A DNA stretch of 64,000 bases from the NCBI GenBank assembly GCA_963783305.1, contig CAWAMW010000017.1, positions 64,001 to 128,000 on the forward strand, written 5' to 3'. The translations under genes and the position numbers were made by a program. The notes under the pieces were generated by a model. That model had not been told where the DNA came from, searched no databases, and saw only the letters and a list, made by a program, of their open reading frames with translations. Below, one piece after another: positions 8,970-60,869 of this stretch (its first letter is position 1; each line of letters starts with the position of its first letter). The DNA is from an uncultured Gemmatimonadales bacterium. Its GTDB lineage: Bacteria > Gemmatimonadota > Gemmatimonadetes > Longimicrobiales > RSA9.

Positions 8970-10530
8970 GAGGACCTCGGGGGCTCGGAGAACTGGAATC
9001 CGTCGTCGGAATGGGGATCAAATATGAAGATGCCGGGGCGCTGGGGCCAGTCAGGGGGACGGGGACGTCGGGCGCGGGGACGACGCGGTCGAGGACGCGG
9101 GCGGAGGAGAGGACGCCGGGGACGCCCGCGCCGGGGTGGGTGCCGGCCCCGACGAAGTAGAGTCCCTGGAGGTCGGGGGCCCGGTTGTGGTAGCGGAACC
9201 ATGCGGACTGGGTGAGGAGCGGCTCGGGTCCGAAGGCGGCGCCATCGACGGAGCGGAGCGTGTGCTCGAAGTCGTAGGGGGTCATGGCGGTGCGGGTGAC
9301 GATACTGTCGCGGAGCCCCGGCATGAGACGCGACTCCAGCTCCTCCAGGATGCGATCGAAGTAGGGCTCGGCCTGGCGGCCCCAGTCGATATCGGCGCGG
9401 GTATTCGGGACGGGCGACAGAACGTAGAACGCGTCCCGGCCGGGGGGCGCCATGCCGGGGTCGGTCCGGGTGGGGGCGTGGAGGTAGAGCGAGAAGTCGT
9501 CGGCCAGGACCTTGCGGCGGAAAATGTCCTGGAGCAGCTCGCGGTAGCGCCCTCCCAGCACGATGGTGTGGTGGACCAGGTCGTCGTACACGCGGTCCGT
9601 GCCGAAGTAGCCGACGAACAGGCTCATGGACTGACCCATGCGTCGGGCCCGCCGAGACCCGCGCGGCACGTCGGTGGCGGAGAGCAGGTTCTGGTAGACC
9701 CAGGTCGGGTCGGCGTTGCTCACCACCACGTCGGCGCGGCGGATCCGGCCCGACTGCGTCCGTACCCCCTCGGCGCGCCCCCCACGCACGATGATCTCCT
9801 CCACCGGCGCGCCGAAGGCCACCTCCACCCCGATCTCCTCCAGCAGCCGCACCAGCCCATTGATGATGGAGCCGGTGCCGCCCATGGCGAAGTGGACGCC
9901 CCACTTCCGCTCCAGCCAGTGGATGAGCAGATAGATCGATGTGGTGCTGAACGGGTTGCCGCCCACCAGGAGCGGCTCGAACGTGAGCGCCTGCCGGAGC
10001 CGCTCGTCGTCTATGTACTTCGCAACCAGCCCGCTCACCGACCGGTAGCTCTGCAGCCGGACCATCGCCGGGATCACCTTCGCCATCGTGGAGAAGCGGT
10101 GGAACGGCTGGTCCGCCAGTCGGGTGTAGCCCACATCGAAGATGCGCTCGGCGTGCGCCGCCAGCCTGCGGTAGTTATCCACGTCCGCGGGGTTCAGCGC
10201 CTCGATCTGAGCCAGCAGCCGCTCCTCGTCGCCCACGTAGTCGAAGTGCGTGCCATCCTGGTACTCGATCCGGTAGAACGGGTCTACGGGGACGAGCTCG
10301 AAGTAGTCCCGACTGTCCCGCCCCACCAGCTCGAACAGCTCGTGGAGCAGGTGCGGCGCCGTGATCACCGTGGGGCCCGCGTCGAACGTGAAGCCGTCGC
10401 GCTCGATCACCCGCGCCCGCCCGCCCGGGCGGTCCAGCGCCTCCAGCACCGTCACCTCGTAGCCGCGGGCACGGAGCCGAACGGCCGCCGCCAGACCGCC
10501 GAAGCCGCTCCCGATCACCACGGCCCTCAC
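8932..10530 (-). CDS. crtI: Phytoene desaturase
   Basis: VIGSGFGGLAAA FAD-binding motif, FDAGPTVIT, QSAWFR and GAGTHPGAGVPGV. The true stop may be at 9051 if a C5 run is miscalled. Confidence 0.95.
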   Translation of the reverse strand: MRAVVIGSGFGGLAAAVRLRARGYEVTVLEALDRPGGRARVIERDGFTFDAGPTVITAPHLLHELFELVGRDSRDYFELVPVDPFYRIEYQDGTHFDYVGDEERLLAQIEALNPADVDNYRRLAAHAERIFDVGYTRLADQPFHRFSTMAKVIPAMVRLQSYRSVSGLVAKYIDDERLRQALTFEPLLVGGNPFSTTSIYLLIHWLERKWGVHFAMGGTGSIINGLVRLLEEIGVEVAFGAPVEEIIVRGGRAEGVRTQSGRIRRADVVVSNADPTWVYQNLLSATDVPRGSRRARRMGQSMSLFVGYFGTDRVYDDLVHHTIVLGGRYRELLQDIFRRKVLADDFSLYLHAPTRTDPGMAPPGRDAFYVLSPVPNTRADIDWGRQAEPYFDRILEELESRLMPGLRDSIVTRTAMTPYDFEHTLRSVDGAAFGPEPLLTQSAWFRYHNRAPDLQGLYFVGAGTHPGAGVPGVLSSARVLDRVVPAPDVPVPLTGPSAPASSYLIPIPTTDSSSPSPRGPHEDPRHPSYEGQ

Positions 10531-11480
10531 GACTCGTCTCCCGCCATCACCACCGCCGACAGCACCTCACGCAACGCGTCCAGATCCTCCACGACCGTCA
10601 CTCCCTCCGGCGTCACCGACGACGAGCGCCGCCCGCCGGTCACCAGCAGTATCCCCTCCGGCAGCATGCTCCGGAGCGCCTCCAGCTCCTCACCCGCTCG
10701 CTCCACGTCACCCGCCTCCCCGTCCACCACGCTCACCGCCACCACCGTCGCTTCCGCACGCTCCGCCGCCCCAGCGATCTCCGACGCCGGCAGCGATGGC
10801 CCCAGGTACAAGACCCGCCACCCCGCGTCCGCCGCCACCACCGCGGCCAGCATCGCGCCGAACTCGTGCAGCTCTCCCGACGGCGTTCCCGCCACCAGCA
10901 GCGGCGCATCCGCCGGCGCTTCGTACCGGCTCAGCAGCCAGTCCAGCACCTGCCGCACCGCCGTCGAGACCACGTGCTCCTGCGCGGGGCGCAGCTGACC
11001 GGCCGCCCACAACTCCCCCACCCGCTCCAGCAACGGTGCCACCACCTCCGCCAGGAAGACCGGCGCGCTCAACCTCACCACCGCCCGCATCAGCGTAGCC
11101 CGCAGCGCCTGCGCGTCCAGCCGGTCCGCCGCCATCAGGCACTCCCGCAGATACAACTCGCGAGTCCCCGGCGCCCCCACCGTCGGCCCCACCCTGCGCG
11201 GCCCCGCCGCCTCCGCATCCTCACCCACCAGCGATACCAGCGCCTCCATCGGCAGCTCCGCCACGCTCCCGATCGAGCGACCTCCCTCCGTCGCTCGCCT
11301 CAGCAGGCGCAGACGCAGCACGTCCGCATCACTGTACAACCGCTGTCCACCTTCGGTCCGCCCCGGCTCCACCGCGCCGTACCGCCGCTCCCACGCCCGC
11401 AGCACGTGCGCCGTGAGACCCGTCCGCTGGACCACCACCCCCATCGGGTGCCGCGCCGCGCTCCCCCCATCCCCTGTCAT
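10527..11480 (-). CDS. carH: MerR-family cobalamin-binding regulator (CarH/LitR-type photoreceptor)
   Basis: LRAWERRYG MerR HTH; W-x9-EH (WAAGQLRPAQEH) and ExHxxG (ELHEFG) B12 motifs; GTGA overlap with crtI. Confidence 0.85.
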   Translation of the reverse strand: MTGDGGSAARHPMGVVVQRTGLTAHVLRAWERRYGAVEPGRTEGGQRLYSDADVLRLRLLRRATEGGRSIGSVAELPMEALVSLVGEDAEAAGPRRVGPTVGAPGTRELYLRECLMAADRLDAQALRATLMRAVVRLSAPVFLAEVVAPLLERVGELWAAGQLRPAQEHVVSTAVRQVLDWLLSRYEAPADAPLLVAGTPSGELHEFGAMLAAVVAADAGWRVLYLGPSLPASEIAGAAERAEATVVAVSVVDGEAGDVERAGEELEALRSMLPEGILLVTGGRRSSSVTPEGVTVVEDLDALREVLSAVVMAGDES

Positions 11481-26243: not shown

Positions 26244-26269
26244 GGAACAGCAACACCGCAAAAGGTAGG

Positions 26270-26308
26270 AACGGCCCCGTCCCGCGTCACGCGGGGCGGG
26301 GCCGTTTT
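26270..26308 (+). terminator. Rho-independent terminator after susD
   Basis: AACGGCCCCGTCCCGCG-TCA-CGCGGGGCGGGGCCGTT followed by T residues. Confidence 0.8.
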
Positions 26309-52304: not shown

Positions 52305-54267
52305 CTAAGGACTCGGGTCGGAGACGGGCCCCGCTCGGGACGAGCGGTAGCAAAGGCGTGGTGAACCGCCGACGAGTTCGACCCGCTGAAACGCAGCACT
52401 TCCTGCCCCGTGACGTTCAGAAGCGAGCGTCGCCCGCAGGATCCACCTCCGGCCTTCCCTTTCCCAGGTATCCTCGACCCGTCCGTTCGAGCTGAGTCCG
52501 CCGTACATCACGAGACGCTCCCGGTCGGGGTCCCAGGCGAGGCCGTGGACGTTGCGGGGGCCGGGGCCCGCGTCGCCGATCCGGTCCACCGCACGCCGTC
52601 CCACTCCCAGGTGTCGCCCAGGTTGCCTTCCTCGCCCCGGCCTCCGTAGAGGACGACACGCTCCATCGCGCCGTCATAGGCCATGCGCGCCGCGAACCTC
52701 GCGGATGGGCCATCATCGGAGACGTGGTGCCAGGTCGTGCCGTCCCACTCCCAGGTGTCGGCGAGCAGCCCATCGTCGCCCCAGCCGCCGAACAGGACGA
52801 CCCGGCCGCGCGCGTCGTCGTACGCGAGCCGGTGCGTAGATCGAGCGGGCGGGGCAGGACCGTCGTGTCGGCGCCAGCGCTGCCCATCGTGGATCCATGT
52901 GTCGCCCAGCAGCGCCTGGTCGCCCGGAACTCCCCGGCTCCCTCCGAAGAGGACCAGCTTCTCCCGTTGCCGATCCCAGACCATGGAACGGTGGTCTCGG
53001 ACGCCGGGTCCGGCGTCCGCGCCGTTGAGCCGAACCCAGCCCGAGCCGTCCCAGGCGACGAGGTCGCCGTAGCGGGCACCGCCATCCCGTCCGAACCGCA
53101 GGCCGAAGCCGCCATGTACGAGGACCCGGTCCCTGACGGGGTCATACGCCAGGGCGAAGTGCCCCCTCGACCCGAGGAGTCCGTCGCTCGCCACCTGTTC
53201 CCACTGCCGACCGTCCCAGGCCCAGACGCCGCTGTCCTGGTCGTCCGGCACGCCCCCGATCAGGACCGTCCGGTGCATGGCCTCGTGATAGACCAGCGCA
53301 TGTGCCGACCGGGGGCCCGGACCTGCGGGGGCGGGTGCCCACGATCCGTCGGCCCAGGTCCATGTATCCCCCAGCGAAGCCCGCTCCGCCGATCGTCCAC
53401 CGTGAAGCAGCGCCCGGCTCCGCGTGTCGTCCCAGGCCATCGCCGCGGCATCCCGCGCCTCCAGGCCGCTTCGCACCCGCTCCCAGTCCCGACCGTCGAA
53501 GAGCCAGGTATCGGCCCGGGCCGACCGATCGGCGCCCAGGCCGCCATTCACGAGCAGGACGTCCCGCTCCGGGTCCCGAACCAGGGCATGGTTGGCGCTC
53601 TCTCCAGGCCCACCTTCCACGGTGAGGCGCGACCACGCGCCTGCCCGCCAGAGCCACAGGTCCCCGTGCATGTCCGCGTCCGGCCCCCGTCCCTCGAGCC
53701 CGCCGAACAGCACGAGCCCACCCGCCCGGCCGAGCGGCGCCATGCCGGCGCCGCAGCGGTTGCCTGGGCCGGAGACGGCCAGGCGCTTCCAGCGGCCGTC
53801 CCACGCCCAGGTATCCGCCGGGTCGCCCTCGCCACAGCCGCCGAACAGCACGACGTGCCGACTCCACGGGTCCCACGCCATGGCGGCCGACGAGCGCGGG
53901 CTGGGGCCGGGGCTGTCGTGTCGACTCCACTTCTCCCCGTCCCAGGTCCAGGTCTGGCCGAGGGGTCCTTCGGCCGACCACCCACCGAACAGGACCAGCT
54001 CTCCGCGCGCGCTGTCGTAGGCCATGGAGACGCTGCTGTGCGCAGGCGGGCCGGAGACGTCGGCGCGGCGCCATGAGGCGCCCTCCCAGATCCAGGTGTC
54101 GCCGTGGAACCGGGGGTCGTCGAACGTGCCGCTGCTGCCGCCGAAAAGCACGACGGTACCGGCCGGCGCGGCTGCCATGGCGTGATGATCCCGCGGGGAC
54201 GGCGCCTGCGCCGGCGCATCCACCGGAAGAGGGCTACGATGAGCAACAGCCCGAGTCGATTGGTCAT
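52305..54267 (-). CDS. Exported Kelch-repeat protein (double propeller), frameshifted at about 54225 and 52583
   Basis: Many LFGG...GDTWxWDGxxW repeats. The signal peptide MTNRLGLLLIVALF and the last repeat lie in other frames, each restored by adding one C. 3' end uncertain. Confidence 0.75.
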
Positions 54268-54496
54268 GGCGCGAGAGCGAGCAGGGCGACCGTGGCCGTG
54301 GCGACCAGGCCCGCACGTCCGCCACGCTCTGCGCCTGGCCTGGCGCGGGCGGGGTCTGGCTCGTGGTCGTCCGAGCGGGTGATTGGATCCTCCTGCAGGT
54401 ACGGTGGTGAGTGAGGCGAAGGGTTCAACACCGGACTCGCCCGCGTCCCGGCAGAACCAAGCCGGGGCAGACGGCGGACGGGAGCGACGGCTCGCC

Positions 54497-55321
54497 TCAT
54501 TTCCTGCTCTCGTCCACTCCGTGCGCGACGAGACCCCGCGGCGGGCCTGATGAGGTGCCATTACCGCCGCCCTCGAAAGCGCCCCGGGAGGAGAGACGCT
54601 CCACGGCCTGCGTGAAGCGGGTCGACGCCTCTCGTGCCCACCCTGCTCCGGCCTTCCAGGCCGAGGAAACGTACGCGATCTCCTGGTGGTCCGGCTGCCC
54701 TCGGACGGGGCTCACGGAGAGGCGGGCGACACCGCAGGAGTCCGCGGACAGGGCCACGATGTGGTAGGGGTCCGTCCGATCCAGGATCCGCATCCGCTTC
54801 ACGCCGAGGGGGTCCTCCCGCACCAGGCCCTGCCAGAGCTCAGCGCGATGCGCGGGCACGACGAACCGCAGACCGACCTCCTCGCGTCGCGAGCCGGCCC
54901 AGTTCTGGAGGTAGTGCCGGAGCTGGATCAGGAGGAAGCGGTACGCATGGCGGGTGCTCTCGATCATGCCGTCCCACTCGGCGTCGGACGGGAAACCGCT
55001 CGTAACGACCCGCACGTGGGACCGTTCGCCGATCCCACGCAGATCCAGCGTCGTGGTCAGCGCCGGATCGGCGTCGTACCCGCCATGGCGCAGCGAGAGG
55101 TGGCGTCCCGGCTCCCACTCCAGCACCCGCATCCCGTGGGACCAGGCGTTCGGCCAGTGAAAACGCAGCGCACCGCCTTCTCCCGGCTCGACCTCCGCGC
55201 GGACCGGAAACCAACCCTCCAGCTCACGAGGCTCGGTCAACGCCCGCCAGGCCCGGTCGACGGGCACATTGATCTCGATTTCACAGCGTGCGGCACGCGG
55301 ATTCAGTGGCAGGGGTTTCAC
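54497..55321 (-). CDS. SRPBCC/AHSA1-domain protein
   Basis: EIEINVPVDRAWRALTEPRELEGWF...GGALRFHW...EWEPGRHL. Start uncertain. Confidence 0.75.
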   Translation of the reverse strand: MKPLPLNPRAARCEIEINVPVDRAWRALTEPRELEGWFPVRAEVEPGEGGALRFHWPNAWSHGMRVLEWEPGRHLSLRHGGYDADPALTTTLDLRGIGERSHVRVVTSGFPSDAEWDGMIESTRHAYRFLLIQLRHYLQNWAGSRREEVGLRFVVPAHRAELWQGLVREDPLGVKRMRILDRTDPYHIVALSADSCGVARLSVSPVRGQPDHQEIAYVSSAWKAGAGWAREASTRFTQAVERLSSRGAFEGGGNGTSSGPPRGLVAHGVDESRK

Positions 55322-55789
55322 GGTCGGTACCTTCCCGAGGCGGCTGGCAGTTGGGGGGCCTGTCTGATAGGACAGCTCTCGGGTCCGGAAGGTTGCAGGC
55401 CCCTCGCGGCGTGCCCACGAACCCGACCGATCATCCTCCAACGTTCGAGACGCACCGGGTCTGACACAACGCGACGCGGACGAGCGGCGAAAGCGCGGGG
55501 CCGGCGGCGAATCCGGCAGCTCGGGGAGCGGCTGGCAGCGAGCCGACATCCTCGCCCGCCGCTCGTCCCGCGCCTCGGCCGGTCGGCCCCGCTCCTCGAC
55601 CTTCGACCGGTTCACGCGGTCCGATGCGCGGCTGAGGGAGGGTCACTTCCGCGCCATCAGCCGGCATGTACGAGAAAGCCCCGAATCCGGCCCCGCCCGC
55701 CCGCCCCCTTCACGAGCCGGCTCGCCCACGCCCTCCCCGCTCACCCCGGATGGCTTCGTGGCCACTCGGATTCGGCCCATTTTGGGAGT

Positions 55790-55942
55790 GTGTTCGAGAG
55801 AGCACCATTCTCCTGGCAGGGGATGAAGAGAGAGCGTCGTCCGGTTCCGGGCGGCGCTCTCTCACTTCGTACCCGTCGCGCGGTGACCCACGGCGATGGA
55901 CGATGAAAGGGGGCGCGCCCGACGGACGCGCCCCCTTTCCCT
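55790..55942 (+). ncRNA. Candidate structured small RNA (may also encode a 27-aa peptide, 55823-55906)
   Basis: Consecutive hairpins with G-U pairs valid only on the + strand, a GAGA tetraloop, and a 13-bp terminator-like stem, in an intergenic region with no annotated gene to terminate. Confidence 0.45.
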
Positions 55943-56018
55943 GCTTACCACACTGCGACGGTCAGTCGATACTGGCCGATTACGCGTCGCACATCCGGGC
56001 GGCCGCCCCGTTCCGCAG

Positions 56019-56108
56019 CCGCTCGCCACAGCCGCTGCTGTTCGTCCCTCCGGTTCGCCGCTCGTACCTCGTCAGTCGCCGTCCGTCACCGACGCACTGG
56101 CGTTCGGC
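56019..56108 (+). promoter_or_regulatory. Array of LytTR-type direct repeats with about 20-21 bp period upstream of the sensor kinase
   Basis: CCGCTCGCC 56019, CTGTTCGTC 56038, CCGCTCGTA 56058, CCGTCCGTC 56079, GCGTTCGGC 56100. Confidence 0.65.
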
Positions 56109-56135
56109 CCCGGACTCAACGGAGATTGGAGCGCA

Positions 56136-57362
56136 ATGACGACACGAACGACGGGCTGGAGCGGACGCGGCCAGAGGCCGAAGCGGATCGACGATCCGGC
56201 GGGCGATGTCCCCGCGGACAACGTGTGGAGAAGACCCCGCACATGGATCGTCGCCGGCCTGATCTTCCTCGCGCTGGGCGTGGTCAACGCGTTCGGGATA
56301 TTCGCCCAGATCCTGCAGTTCGAGGAAGCGACGGGGTGGGAGGCGCTTCGCTTCTCGATGCTGCGGATGATCCCCTTCTGGATGTTCGCCTACCTGCTAC
56401 TGCCGATCCCGGTCTGGATCACCCACCGCTTTCCGCCCTTCGGCCCGAAATGGCCGAGGAATCTCCTCGTCCACCTGGTCACCGCCCTCCCATTCACGCT
56501 GCTCCGGCTTTCCATGGGGTACTCGGTGGCGTACCTGATCACACCCCCGGCGTACGAGGTCACGCTCGGCGCGTTCCTGTTTGGCGGGCTGGTCTCCTCG
56601 ACGGGCAGCGGGGTCACGATCTACCTCGCGACCGTCGGCGCCGTGATCGCCGTCGACCACTACTTCGAGTCACGTGCCCGCGAGAGGCAGGCGGCGCGTG
56701 CGGAGTTGAGGGCCGCCCAGCTCGAGACCAGCCTCGAACGGTCGCGCCTGGAGTGGCTCCGGTCCCAGCTCGACCCGCATTTCCTCTTCAACGCCCTCAA
56801 CAGCATCTCCACGCTGGCCCGCCAGGGAAACGCGAAGGCGGTGGTCGCCGGGCTCGGTCGGCTGGGGGACCTGCTGCGCGCCACCCTCGACCGGGACCGC
56901 GCCGTGAGCACGCTCGAGGAAGAGCTCGCGTTCCTCGACATGTACCTCGATATCGAGCGCATGCGGCTGGGGGACCGGGTCGGGATCCACGTGGAGGTGA
57001 CGGAGGAGGCCAGACGTGCACGGCTGCCCGCCCTGCTCCTCCAGCCTCTGGTCGAGAACGCTCTGAAGCACGGCGCCGGCGCGACCCGCGGCCCCGTGGA
57101 CGTGCACGTCACCGGCCAGGTGGACGGGGACCGGCTGCGGCTGCGGGTCCGGGACACAGGCCGGGGCTTTCCCGACACGTGGAGTGAGGGGGTCGGCCTG
57201 GGGAACACCCTGCAGCGCCTCGACCAGCTCTTCGGAGACGCGGGCAGGTTCGAGATCGACTCCTCGGACGCCGGTGCCACCGTGACGTTGACCCTGCCCT
57301 ACGACCCGGTGCCGGCCGAGGCCGGTTCGCGCGAGCCCGAGCCGGCGGAGCCCGTCGCATGA
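56136..57362 (+). CDS. LytS/YehU-type sensor histidine kinase
   Basis: Four TM helices; LRSQLDPHFLFNALNSI, LQPLVENALKHG and GVGLGN. Confidence 0.93.
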   Translation: MTTRTTGWSGRGQRPKRIDDPAGDVPADNVWRRPRTWIVAGLIFLALGVVNAFGIFAQILQFEEATGWEALRFSMLRMIPFWMFAYLLLPIPVWITHRFPPFGPKWPRNLLVHLVTALPFTLLRLSMGYSVAYLITPPAYEVTLGAFLFGGLVSSTGSGVTIYLATVGAVIAVDHYFESRARERQAARAELRAAQLETSLERSRLEWLRSQLDPHFLFNALNSISTLARQGNAKAVVAGLGRLGDLLRATLDRDRAVSTLEEELAFLDMYLDIERMRLGDRVGIHVEVTEEARRARLPALLLQPLVENALKHGAGATRGPVDVHVTGQVDGDRLRLRVRDTGRGFPDTWSEGVGLGNTLQRLDQLFGDAGRFEIDSSDAGATVTLTLPYDPVPAEAGSREPEPAEPVA

Positions 57363-58126
57363 GACGCGTCGTGCAGGCCGTCGTGGTCGACGACGAGCCA
57401 CTCGCCCGGGAGGGACTGATGAGCTACCTCGAGCCGCACGACGACATTGAGGTCGTGGCGGTCTGCGAGGACGGCGTGAAGGCCGTCGCGGCCATCGAGG
57501 AGCACCAGCCCGACGTCGTCTTCCTCGACATCCAGATGCCCGAGATGAGCGGATTCGACGTGGTCGAGCGCGTGGGCCCCGACCGTATGCCGGCCATCGT
57601 GTTCGTCACCGCCTACGACGAGTTCGCGCTCGAGGCCTTCGAGGCCGCCGCCCTGGACTACGTGCTGAAGCCCCTGGACGAGGAGCGGGTCGAGCGCGCC
57701 CTCCGGCGAGTACGCGATCGGATGGAGCATGCGCAGCCGGCCACGGCAGAGCTCCACGCGCTGCTGCGCTATGTGAAGGAGGCGCGGACCGATCGGCCAT
57801 TCGCCACCAGGCTCAAGGTCCGGGAAGGCGAGCACATCCGCTTCGTCGAGGTCCGGACGATCGAGTGGTTCGAGGCCGACGGCAACTACGTGGTCCTCCA
57901 TGCGCGAGAGGACGAGGCCAGGATCCGCTCGACCATGTCCGGCCTCGAAGAGGTGCTGGACCCCTCCCGCTTCGTCCGGGTGCACCGGTCCGTCATCGTC
58001 AACCTCGATCACCTCAAGGAGGTCCAGCCGTGGTTCAGCGGCGACTACCTCGCCATCATGAACAACGGCGACCAGATCCGCGTCAGTCGACGCTACAAGG
58101 ATGACCTCCTCCGCGACGTGATCTGA
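57359..58126 (+). CDS. LytR/AlgR-family response regulator
   Basis: REC domain (VDDEPLAR, FLDIQMP, TAYD, KP) and LytTR domain (FVRVHRSVIVN, VSRRY); ATGA overlap with the kinase. Confidence 0.95.
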   Translation: MRRVVQAVVVDDEPLAREGLMSYLEPHDDIEVVAVCEDGVKAVAAIEEHQPDVVFLDIQMPEMSGFDVVERVGPDRMPAIVFVTAYDEFALEAFEAAALDYVLKPLDEERVERALRRVRDRMEHAQPATAELHALLRYVKEARTDRPFATRLKVREGEHIRFVEVRTIEWFEADGNYVVLHAREDEARIRSTMSGLEEVLDPSRFVRVHRSVIVNLDHLKEVQPWFSGDYLAIMNNGDQIRVSRRYKDDLLRDVI

Positions 58127-58436
58127 GACGACGACGCCCCGTACCCCGACGCTCCTGGCCGTCGCGGCGCTCTGCGCTGCCGCACTCGTTTGCTTCGGGG
58201 TGAGCGGCCTCCTCCGTCGCACCGGCGCACGCCAGCAGCATGGGACAAAGAAGCAGGGGCAGGGTGAGCGTCGATGCGCGTGGGGCGAACCGTGAAGCGT
58301 GCGGCGAGACGAACGGTCCCGCGTCGGCGTCGGGACGAGCGGCGATAACGAGGGACGGAGCGGACCAACCCTCACCGGCCTCCGACCGTCCAACCTAACG
58401 GAATCCATCAGGCAGCCCCCCCGACTCCGGACACCC

Positions 58437-60869
58437 ATGCCATTCCGCCACGCGATCACCACGCTCATTCGACGTCCCGCGTACACGCTGCTGGCCGTGA
58501 CCGCCATGGCCCTGGGCGTGGCCGGAACCACCGCCGTCTACAGCCTGGTCCATCACGTCCTGGTCGAGGGACTCCCGTTCGAAGACCCGGACCGTCTCGT
58601 GACGCCCGACGTGCGCTCGCCCCAGGGCTACGTGATCAGCCTTTCCATTCCGAACTACCAGGACTGGACGCAGCGCAGCCGCGTATTCGACCGGTACGGC
58701 GCGTCTTCCGGGTGGACCGTCGCGCGCCCGCTCGAGGACGGCGGTGCGGAGATCCTGAGCGCACGCGCGGTTCTGGGCGACTTCTTCGCGACGCTTGGTC
58801 TCGAGGCCGCCGCCGGCCGGCTCATTACCGCCCCGGAAACGGAGCCAGGAAGCGCGCCGCTGGCCGTCCTCTCCCACGGCTTCTGGCAGCGCGCCTACGG
58901 CGGCGAGGACGTCATCGGTGAGTCCATCGTGACGGATGAGTTCTCTGCCACCATCGTCGGCATCCTGCCGCCGGGGGCCGGATACCCCTCTCAGAACGTG
59001 GAGCTCTACTTCAACATGGGCGCGCTGTCCGAAAGCCTTCCGTGGAGCGACCGCGACAGTTCCTTCGGGACCCGGATGCTCGGCCGGCTCGCCCCCGGCC
59101 TCACCTTCGATGCGGCGCAGGCGGACCTGAGTCGCGTCGCGCGAGAGGTCGCCGCCGAGGAAGGCGCCCCGGTCGCCACGCCCGAGCTGCGGCCGCTCGA
59201 CGACCTGTTCCTCGGCGAAGTCCGTGGTGGACTCTGGCTCCTCATGGCGGCCGTCGGGCTGCTCCTGCTCATCGCCACGGCCAATGTGGCCAACCTGTCG
59301 CTGGCCCGGGGTGAGGCCCGCGGCCGGGAGCTGGCCGTACGGGCGGCGCTGGGGGCCGACCGGGGCAGCCTGGTCGGCGTGCTCCTCGCCGAGTCGATCG
59401 TCATTGCGGCCGCCGCCGGCGCGCTCGGAGTCGCACTGTCCGCCGCAGCGATCCGGGTACTGCCCGACCTGCTGCCCCTGGACCTGCCGTCGCTCACCGC
59501 GGACCGGATCAGCCTCGACGCGCCCGTCGTAGCGTTCGCTCTCTCCGTCACGGCGCTCAGCGGACTGGTGTTCGGTCTCCTCCCCGCGCTCCGACTCGCC
59601 GGCTCCGATTCGGCCCGCGGCGTCAGCGCCCTGGCCGCGCTCCGACACGGGAACCGACTCGCCGGGGGCCGCAAAGCTCGCCGCCTGCGCGACGGCCTCG
59701 TGGTGACGCAGGTCGCGCTCTCACTCGTCCTGCTCGTCGCCGCGGGACTCCTCACCCGCAGCCTGTCCCGTCTCGGCCAGGTCGATAAGGGGTTCGTGGC
59801 TGAGAACGTCGTGACGGCCGAGATCCAGCTGCCCGACGGAGCGTTCCCCGAGCCCGAGCGGCGGTGGGCGTTCTACGACGAGCTGAAGGCCCGCCTGGAG
59901 GCCGCGTCCGAGGTCGAGTCGGTCGCGATGACGCTCCTGGTCCCCCTGGCCGGCGGATCGTGGGAGCGTCTCATCGCACCGGAGGGCGGCTCCCTCGAGA
60001 GGGTCGACATGGAGTCGGTGCTCTACAACGTGGTGGGCGATGACTACTTCGGCACCCTCGGGATTCCGCTGCGCCGCGGCCGCGCGCTCGGCCCCGCGGA
60101 CCGCGCGGACGGCGCCCCAGTGGTGATCATCGATGAGACCATGGCCGAGCGGTTCTGGCCGGGCGAGGATCCGCTGGGTCAGCGCGTGGCGTTCGAGACG
60201 CCCCAGCCAGGGGACCCGCCGGTCTGGCTCACCGTGGTCGGCGTGGTGGCGAATGTCCGGCACTACGAGCTCGAGAGCCCGAGCCGGATCCAGGCGTGGG
60301 TGCCCATGCGCCAGGTATCCAGGGGCATCAATCTCGATGTAGTCATGCAGGTCCGCGCTGGCGCCGAGGCCGCCGGCATCGGCCTGCTCCGGGGCGCGGT
60401 CGCCGATCTGGCCCCCGGCGCGGCCGTGAGCGACGTCCGCCCTCTGTCCGACATTGTCGACGACCGGCTCGGGCCCGCCCGCTGGCTCGGAACCCTCACG
60501 GCCCTCTTCGCCACCTTCGCCCTGCTCCTGGCCGCGCTCGGCATCTTCGGCGTGCTGTCGCTGGCCGTCGCACGCCGCCGCCGGGAGCTGGGCGTACGGC
60601 TGGCCATCGGGGCCACGCCCGCGGCCGTGGTCCAGCTGGTCGCGGGGTACGCTCTGCTCCTCGCCGGCAGCGGCGTGGCCATCGGCCTCGCCGCTGCCCT
60701 GGCCGCCGGCCGCGTGATGGACTCGTTCCTCTTCGAAATCGGCTCGTTCGACCCGTTGGTGTACGGAACCGTTACCGCCGCGATGCTGCTGCTCGCGCTC
60801 GCCGCCTCGGCCGCGCCCGCGCTACGAGCCGCCGCGACCGACCCCGCCCGGGTCCTGAGAGAGGAGTAG
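58437..60869 (+). CDS. ADOP-family duplicated ABC permease (MacB/FtsX x2)
   Basis: ANVANL..ARG..RGRELAVRAALGA, LVVTQVALSLVLL, RRRELGVRLAIGA and DPARVLREE. Confidence 0.93.
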   Translation: MPFRHAITTLIRRPAYTLLAVTAMALGVAGTTAVYSLVHHVLVEGLPFEDPDRLVTPDVRSPQGYVISLSIPNYQDWTQRSRVFDRYGASSGWTVARPLEDGGAEILSARAVLGDFFATLGLEAAAGRLITAPETEPGSAPLAVLSHGFWQRAYGGEDVIGESIVTDEFSATIVGILPPGAGYPSQNVELYFNMGALSESLPWSDRDSSFGTRMLGRLAPGLTFDAAQADLSRVAREVAAEEGAPVATPELRPLDDLFLGEVRGGLWLLMAAVGLLLLIATANVANLSLARGEARGRELAVRAALGADRGSLVGVLLAESIVIAAAAGALGVALSAAAIRVLPDLLPLDLPSLTADRISLDAPVVAFALSVTALSGLVFGLLPALRLAGSDSARGVSALAALRHGNRLAGGRKARRLRDGLVVTQVALSLVLLVAAGLLTRSLSRLGQVDKGFVAENVVTAEIQLPDGAFPEPERRWAFYDELKARLEAASEVESVAMTLLVPLAGGSWERLIAPEGGSLERVDMESVLYNVVGDDYFGTLGIPLRRGRALGPADRADGAPVVIIDETMAERFWPGEDPLGQRVAFETPQPGDPPVWLTVVGVVANVRHYELESPSRIQAWVPMRQVSRGINLDVVMQVRAGAEAAGIGLLRGAVADLAPGAAVSDVRPLSDIVDDRLGPARWLGTLTALFATFALLLAALGIFGVLSLAVARRRRELGVRLAIGATPAAVVQLVAGYALLLAGSGVAIGLAAALAAGRVMDSFLFEIGSFDPLVYGTVTAAMLLLALAASAAPALRAAATDPARVLREE

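Follow-up and report, generated by a model that had tools for sequence, protein, structure and literature searches.

A four-hairpin element upstream of a LytS/LytTR two-component system in an uncultured Gemmatimonadota bacterium: a plausible orphan small RNA, perhaps LytTR-controlled

The intergenic region upstream of a LytS/LytTR two-component system harbours an element of four consecutive hairpins (H1, H2, H3 and a terminator-type hairpin, T; 55784-55945, + strand), which plausibly represents an orphan small RNA (sRNA), perhaps controlled by the LytTR regulator. The element fits a known kind, i.e., a terminator-ended sRNA beside a two-component system, but lies outside the described families, and no relatives of it were found among the collections examined. 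An RNA or peptide output of the two-component system had been proposed for this locus in a preliminary description. The RNA part of this proposal stood insofar as the element is real and strongly structured, its + strand is favoured and its terminator is an orphan, whereas the peptide version found no support. All positions refer to the window, i.e., the whole analysed stretch of 64,000 nucleotides with a GC content of 68.5 % (contig 17, positions 64001-128000; draft genome of 4.35 Mb in 17 contigs).

The genes flanking the element diverge, with an AHSA1/SRPBCC-like gene on the - strand and lytS on the + strand. The former is contained in an open reading frame of 372 aa (54497..55615, -; Pfam), to which family homologues start aligning only at residues 94-105 of 372. 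Homologue matches extending further upstream mostly contain stop codons, and the GC3 periodicity of the reading frame fades above ~55240. As judged from these features, the gene most likely starts near 55321, which would leave a noncoding gap of ~810 nt (55322-56135; 814 nt) between the two divergent genes. On the other side, lytS (56136..57362, +; Pfam) encodes a LytS-type histidine kinase (His_kinase PF06580 and HATPase_c), its start codon (ATG 56136) agreeing with the N-termini of homologues, and lytT (57359..58126, +; Pfam) encodes a response regulator composed of a receiver and a LytTR DNA-binding domain. The top named model for this regulator is BtsR (NCBIfam, E 1.6e-57); since the score of 194.6 bits remains below the equivalog cutoff of 246, the protein is not considered to be BtsR. 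Downstream of lytT, beyond a gap of 310 nt, follows a MacB_PCD/FtsX permease of the ADOP family (Pfam, NCBIfam; 758.9 bits with TIGR03434 at a cutoff of 622.3), the alignment placing its start at ATG 58437. The source names of the LytS homologues include Gemmatimonadales and Longimicrobiales.

Hairpin H1 (55784..55812, +; -13.6 kcal/mol) comprises 12 pairs, three of them G-U, and a GAGA (GNRA) loop. H2 (55823..55870, +; -33.6 kcal/mol) consists of a 16-bp core (55828-55863) and a lower stem of 5 bp, and is followed by H3 (55867..55903, +; -17.2 kcal/mol) and T (55905..55939, +; -30.3 kcal/mol). The hairpins listed previously, i.e., GTGTTC-GAGA-GAGCAC at 55790-55805, a long stem at 55823-55870, CCGTCGC/GCGATGG at 55873-55899 and a 13-bp stem at 55905-55939, were all recovered at these positions. 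The mismatches of the long stem had been read as G-U pairs on the + strand; indeed, the H2 core contains two G-U pairs, corresponding to A-C mismatches on the minus strand. Taken together, H1-H3 contain six G-U pairs, all of which would turn into A-C mismatches if the minus strand were the RNA, while T alone folds slightly better on the minus strand. The + strand is favoured as the RNA strand of the element.

The succession of back-to-back hairpins, a further point of the preliminary description, is far beyond chance. The minimum free energy of the region 55780-55950 (+) amounts to -103 kcal/mol (z -7.87), and none of 200 shuffled sequences was as stable; on the minus strand, the same region reaches -90.1 kcal/mol (z -5.67). 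The raw value of -103 kcal/mol was attained by 9 of 4829 windows of 171 nt drawn at random from the genome, these nine having a GC content of 72-81 %, as compared to 64.9 % for the element. When energies were adjusted for GC content by regression, none of the 4829 windows matched the residual of the element. Sliding 90-nt windows on the + strand yielded z-scores of -5.6 to -2.1 for starts at 55780-55900 and of -1.4 to +2.3 elsewhere in the gap. Since unusual values are confined to windows within 55780-55989, the element is sharp-edged (~55780-55945). A minus-strand fold over the region of box array A (described below) was dropped, as its z-score of -4.4 with 60 shuffles changed to -2.2 with 200 shuffles.

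Hairpin T (GAAAGGGGGCGCG...CGCGCCCCCTTTC) has a GC-rich stem of 13 bp, with an A-tract before and a T-tract after it. Judged by its sequence, T agrees with the criteria for a predicted intrinsic (Rho-independent) terminator, which could act in both directions. Its tail (TTTC) provides three U residues, falling short of the strict rule of at least five T; other terminators of the lineage likewise carry a U-tail of three U residues. Hairpins of the same type (GGGGGCGCG...CGCGCCCCCTTT) are found after stop codons in relatives, and the terminator-like 13-bp stem of the preliminary description was confirmed as the intrinsic-terminator type usual in this lineage. An example is located 3' of the stop codon of an apparent FKBP-type isomerase gene, as read from the DNA of a relative (locus L015). 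Based on a crude gene call that used GC3, a genome-wide count gave 143 terminator-like hairpins, 60 of which followed a same-strand stop codon at a distance of at most 100 nt, compared to ~3.4 % expected at random (~12-fold enrichment). For T, no same-strand stop codon exists within 5 kb on either strand. Together with the divergence of the flanking genes, this lack of a nearby stop codon implies that T belongs to an extra transcription unit, and the + strand is suggested for this unit by the upstream hairpins, given their bias in G-U pairs.

Candidate LytTR sites are present on both sides of the element. Box array A (55697..55745, +) consists of three 9-mers (CCGCCCGCC at 55697, CGGCTCGCC at 55718 and CCGCTCACC at 55737) with a period of 21 and 19 nt; the boxes named in the preliminary description are likewise in place (CCGCCCGCC at 55697, CCGGCTCGCC at 55717 and CCGCTCACC at 55737). 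Box array B (56019..56087, +), located upstream of lytS and thereby a candidate for autoregulation, consists of four 9-mers (CCGCTCGCC at 56019, CTGTTCGTC at 56038, CCGCTCGTA at 56058 and CCGTCCGTC at 56079) with a period of 19, 20 and 21 nt. In both arrays the period is thus 19-21 nt and the spacers measure 10-12 nt. This arrangement resembles LytTR sites as described in an excerpt of PMC4847170, i.e., repeats of 9-11 nt, direct or inverted, that are spaced by 11-13 nt. The box core CCGCTCG/A differs by one to two mismatches from the AlgR core consensus CCGTTCGTC (PMC4064291, in excerpt), and CCGCTCA is shared with the site oligonucleotide of E. coli YehT/BtsR, which includes GCCGCTCA, ACCGCTTA and ACCACTCA (PMC4847170, in excerpt). 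The boxes of array A are weak on their own, since each of them deviates from the AlgR consensus by three mismatches. Moreover, the box motifs were defined post hoc, after inspection of the sequence, and the pattern CSGCYCRCC occurs 42 times in the window at an expectation of 30 +/- 6.

The two arrays predict each other. A position weight matrix (PWM) derived from array A alone placed the triple 56019/56038/56058 of array B within the top 94 of 8,708,690 genome positions, and a PWM derived from array B alone placed the triple of array A within the top 110 of the same number of positions. Such ranks correspond to a probability of ~0.002-0.004 for a triple of this kind in regions of this size. 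Chance triples do occur, however, since two of the four best triple-box matches of the genome (the second and the fourth) fall within a pair of paralogous segments of contigs C9 and C10, which are 85 % identical to each other and, judged by eye, resemble coding sequence. Upstream of 27 paralogous LytS loci, the box PWM was not enriched (0.0030 vs 0.0029 per position).

Further boxes are located on the minus strand of the gap between lytT and the ADOP permease gene (58199..58342, -), comprising CCGCTCGTC at 58342, CCGTTCGTC at 58316, CGGTTCGCC at 58292, ACGCTCACC at 58271 and CCGCTCACC at 58207. The second of these is an exact AlgR core (58308-58316, -). Allowing at most one mismatch, the AlgR core CCGTTCGTC is matched four times in the 814-nt gap and twice in the 310-nt gap, as compared to 0.93 matches expected from the window-wide rate (Poisson P ~3e-4). 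In addition, the 10-mer CGCCGCTCGT forms an inverted pair within 55480..55566 (55489-55480, -; 55557-55566, +) and recurs at 56056-56065 (+) and 58344-58335 (-). Of its 66 genomic copies, the 814-nt gap contains three, and the 310-nt gap between lytT and the ADOP permease gene contains one. Some 10-mer occurs three times in 190 of 3000 random 814-nt segments; for 6 of the 3000, a further copy of it is found in a 310-nt segment at a distance of 2 kb.

With respect to promoters, a consensus scan for sigma-70-like sites retrieved none in 55200-56400. The possible -10 element proposed earlier (CATTTT, 55778-55783, +) is present as a sequence, but the scan did not report a promoter at this position. 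Two further similarities were given little or no weight. The two putative promoter regions share 71 % column identity in a MAFFT alignment, which is weak evidence, as 43 of 3999 random genomic segments align equally well. The repeat D3 (CACTSGNRTTCGGCCC), located 3' of both arrays and present in two genomic copies, was disregarded because a GC-rich region of 841 nt should contain several 13-of-16 pairs of this kind by chance.

The cross-predicting array B and the AlgR/BtsR-like box core provide indirect support, at the level of sequence, for a link between the element and the LytTR regulator. We tentatively regard the element as an independent + strand sRNA of ~160 nt (55784 to ~55943), which is ended by T and whose promoter may be controlled by LytS/LytTR via array A. 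Transcription would begin near 55784, the promoter following directly on array A, and T would end the RNA at ~55943. The LytTR regulator would bind both arrays and thereby switch on its own operon as well as the RNA, with lytS-lytT being autoregulated via array B from a promoter downstream of T. As the system's output, the RNA could exert its effect in trans, and the minus-strand boxes at 58199-58342 may tie the ADOP permease to the same regulator. The most specific version of this scheme, in which a BtsR/AlgR-like LytTR regulator directly activates an effector RNA of ~160 nt, autoregulates via array B and controls the ADOP permease via 58199-58342, is rather doubtful in its entirety.

Alternatively, the element might be a cis-acting 5' leader or attenuator of lytS-lytT, with transcription initiated upstream of H1 and either stopping at T or reading through into lytS. 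Such a function would agree with its position directly upstream of lytS on the same strand, the end of T being 196 nt away from the lytS ATG. It would also agree with an antiterminator-like rearrangement: in a fold computed without the 3' arm of T, the 5' arm of H3 forms pairs with both the loop and the 5' arm of T. Furthermore, 55881-55903 and 56069-56091 show 83 % complementarity across 23 nt. However, alternative pairings of this kind are expected in GC-rich sequence, and the terminated fold is ~25 kcal/mol more stable than the alternative one (-103 vs -77.5 kcal/mol). No riboswitch, aptamer or leader of Rfam matched, and nothing comparable was detected upstream of 29 paralogous LytS loci. 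The interposition of the four-box array B between T and lytS rather fits an independent lytS promoter; it argues for regulated transcription of lytS from a promoter of its own, apart from the unit formed by the element. A role as a leader is considered unlikely.

A further possibility is that the element has no current function, its terminator and hairpins being left over from the 3' end of a lost gene or from a local rearrangement within an accessory region, perhaps serving only as a passive transcription insulator. This reading, which we regard as improbable, draws on the isolation of the locus: no homologue of the element was found in any collection searched, and the LytS/LytTR locus lacks a close orthologue, from which it follows that the region was acquired recently or evolves fast. 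At the protein level, LytS had paralogues of at most 43 % identity in 60 genomes of the family and no match at E 1e-30 in the three same-genus genomes drawn, and its best non-self match among 5.8 billion proteins shared 47 % identity. The LytTR regulator was at best 36 % identical across all six same-genus genomes, and the AHSA1-like protein reached at best 34 % identity in the search of the genus. Single-protein scans of genome contigs and metagenome contigs revealed no related locus. An alignment-based metagenome scan returned 80 loci, all with at most 44 % identity, because the scan patterns were generic kinase motifs. In one genome of the family (G021), a LytS paralogue shares its contig with an AHSA1-like gene, though in non-syntenic arrangement and without the element (best score 11 bits).

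Nucleotide-level searches likewise retrieved no relative. A DNA search of 40 relatives produced only short matches of at most 67 nt. In the 29 paralogous LytS loci, nhmmer and blastn detected nothing like the element, and a hairpin scan upstream of these loci found none with two stems of at least 13 bp, the longest single stem being 15 bp (locus L034). A single-sequence covariance model of the element gave nothing convincing in 72 genomes of the family (best score 29.2 bits); among 150 genomes of the order, the top match (37.8 bits) aligned to the terminator only and skipped H2. An exact-pattern scan of 185,579 species genomes yielded 8 matches, which are chance GC-rich palindromes from unrelated phyla and correspond to H2 only.

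Against a relic, on the other hand, stands the element itself. All six G-U pairs of H1-H3 favour one strand, and the extreme GC-adjusted stability (0 of 4829 windows) would be unexpected for a drifting remnant. Moreover, no trace of a decayed gene was apparent: tblastx against the genome and all loci gave just compositional matches rich in Pro, Arg and Ala, and Pfam did not match any ORF overlapping the element. A function as insulator also has little to act on, since the flanking genes diverge and there is no neighbouring + strand transcription in need of insulation.

The element overlaps an ORF of 27 aa (MKRERRPVPGGALSLRTRRAVTHGDGR; 55823..55906, +), which the preliminary description had correctly placed inside the hairpins with its start codon paired; the ATG is located in the lower part of the H2 stem. 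The ORF was judged not to be a gene. It represents the tail of a 406-aa shadow ORF (54686..55906) running antisense to the AHSA1-like gene, in which Pfam likewise detected nothing. A workable Shine-Dalgarno spacing is lacking, because GGGG is immediately adjacent to the ATG and a spacer of 1 nt separates GGGAG from the alternative GTG. Some LytTR systems of Firmicutes are driven by peptide pheromones, and a small-peptide gene (27 aa, or 38 aa from GTG 55790) encoding a signal or effector of the system would be in line with the existence of an ORF that ends just before T and with a Gly-Gly in the product. However, the Arg-rich, highly basic product resembles off-frame translation of GC-rich DNA, GC3 periodicity is absent over 55780-55900, and the adjacent transport gene codes for an ADOP permease rather than for a peptidase-type exporter. 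The peptide alternative put forward earlier is thus very unlikely.

A mobile or DNA-level element (REP-like repeat, MITE or palindromic recombination site) would be compatible with palindromes that fold on both strands, including the still considerable z-score of the minus strand, but is extremely unlikely given the single-copy state of the element, the lack of direct repeats or terminal inverted repeats at its borders, a G-U asymmetry favouring the RNA reading, and the unrelated nature of the palindromes from the exact-pattern scan. A dispersed REP family, named beforehand as the observation that would speak against an RNA linked to LytTR genes, is excluded: the only match in the 4.35-Mb genome is the locus itself, all others being words of 13-20 nt, and no repeat family covers the element within the 64-kb window. 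As to known RNA families, the region 54000-57500 scored best at 13.9-21 bits with Rfam 15, compared to gathering scores of 35-75 (E at least 3.4). The absence of any match at the gathering threshold bears out the earlier remark that the family was not recognised. No tRNA or tmRNA was found at the element.

In Staphylococcus aureus, the LytTR regulator AgrA activates agr P3, from which RNAIII (~514 nt) is formed; in Clostridium perfringens, VR-RNA is under the LytTR regulator VirR. By analogy, the logic proposed for the present sRNA candidate would share with these systems a LytTR regulator, imperfect direct repeats preceding the promoter, a structured RNA beside the two-component genes and an intrinsic terminator (description of LytTR sites from excerpts of PMC4064291 and PMC4847170). 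The element differs from both RNAs in showing no sequence or Rfam similarity to them, in being arranged in tandem with the operon instead of divergently, and in belonging to a GC-rich member of the Gemmatimonadota instead of a Firmicute. Furthermore, at ~160 nt it is considerably shorter than RNAIII, and the kinase belongs to the LytS/BtsS type (PF06580) instead of the AgrC type. With generic trans-acting sRNAs the element shares the format of a discrete noncoding intergenic unit of 100-200 nt with several stem-loops and a GC-rich hairpin followed by U residues, but it lies outside every Rfam 15 family and its U-tail comprises just three U.

If real, the element would be among the first candidate regulatory RNAs described in Gemmatimonadota; a full-text literature search, as judged by titles, retrieved no paper on sRNAs of Gemmatimonadetes. 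Its proposed control, if true, would mean that a LytS/LytTR system beyond the Firmicutes has an RNA output in the style of RNAIII, and would extend LytTR-driven effector RNAs to systems of the LytS/BtsS type in a lineage that is GC-rich and mostly uncultured. The general significance is limited by the fact that the element is one orphan locus in one draft genome. The box arrays lead to a concrete, testable regulon hypothesis, comprising the RNA, lytS-lytT and the ADOP permease, for a two-component system that is otherwise uncharacterised. In terms of domain architecture of kinase and regulator, the system corresponds to AlgZ/AlgR of Pseudomonas aeruginosa and BtsS/BtsR (YehU/YehT) of E. coli. 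The excerpts of PMC4064291 and PMC4847170 contain no mention of a small RNA directly under AlgR/BtsR; the known targets of BtsR/AlgR are protein genes (transporters; alginate, pilus), and the candidate neighbouring target in the present case is the ADOP permease.

Four 9-mers, CCGCTCGCC, CTGTTCGTC, CCGCTCGTA and CCGTCCGTC, are arrayed on the + strand upstream of lytS (window 56019-56087) with a period of 19-21 nt, the array ending 49 nt before the lytS ATG. Judged by sequence, they are candidate LytTR sites for autoregulation. This array is absent from the preliminary description, which placed its boxes further upstream (55697-55745). The middle one of those boxes is overlapped by a perfect 12-nt palindrome, CGAGCCGGCTCG (window 55714-55725), and therefore reads similarly on either strand.

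Upstream of the divergently oriented AHSA1-like gene, a perfect 12-nt inverted repeat is formed by GGACGAGCGGCG (window 55478-55489) and CGCCGCTCGTCC (55557-55568), with 67 nt between the arms. Its arms thus supply a pair of strong, oppositely oriented boxes that precede the AHSA1-like gene by about 160-240 nt, so this gene may belong to the same regulon. The AHSA1-like ORF carries a 98-codon 5' extension (window 55322-55615, - strand) which is not found in homologues from the family. Despite its absence in homologues, GC at the third-codon phase of the extension frame reaches 90 % over 55480-55660, which may reflect the box-rich words located there.

The LytTR regulator gene and the ADOP permease gene are separated by 310 nt, and this gap contains five further boxes resembling AlgR and BtsR sites on the - strand (window 58199-58342), one of them an exact CCGTTCGTC (58308-58316); the 10-mer CGCCGCTCGT at 58344-58335 is grouped with them. 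Their spacing is uneven (26, 24, 21 and 64 nt). As for the start of the permease gene, the longest ORF begins at GTG 58299 (window 58299-58437), but residues 3-810 in the alignment to TIGR03434 fit a start at ATG 58437, an ATG that lacks an evident Shine-Dalgarno sequence.

Within the candidate sRNA, the loop and 3' arm of the third hairpin, H3 (window 55881-55903), show 83 % complementarity over 23 nt to the region of the fourth box of the lytS-proximal array (56069-56091), a pairing that would be relevant only if transcripts read through the terminator-type hairpin T. The strongest terminator-like hairpin of the window lies elsewhere on the + strand (26268-26308), comprising a 19-bp GC-rich stem followed by TTTT; in a crude gene call, the 1.4 kb around this hairpin on either side contained no stop of a gene on its strand.

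Elsewhere in the source genome, two of the four best triple-box matches fall into 85 %-identical segments of ~1.9 kb at the ends of two small contigs, C9 (about 9444-11375) and C10 (1-1924). These segments are paralogous and apparently coding, and the assembly was probably broken here by a repeat.
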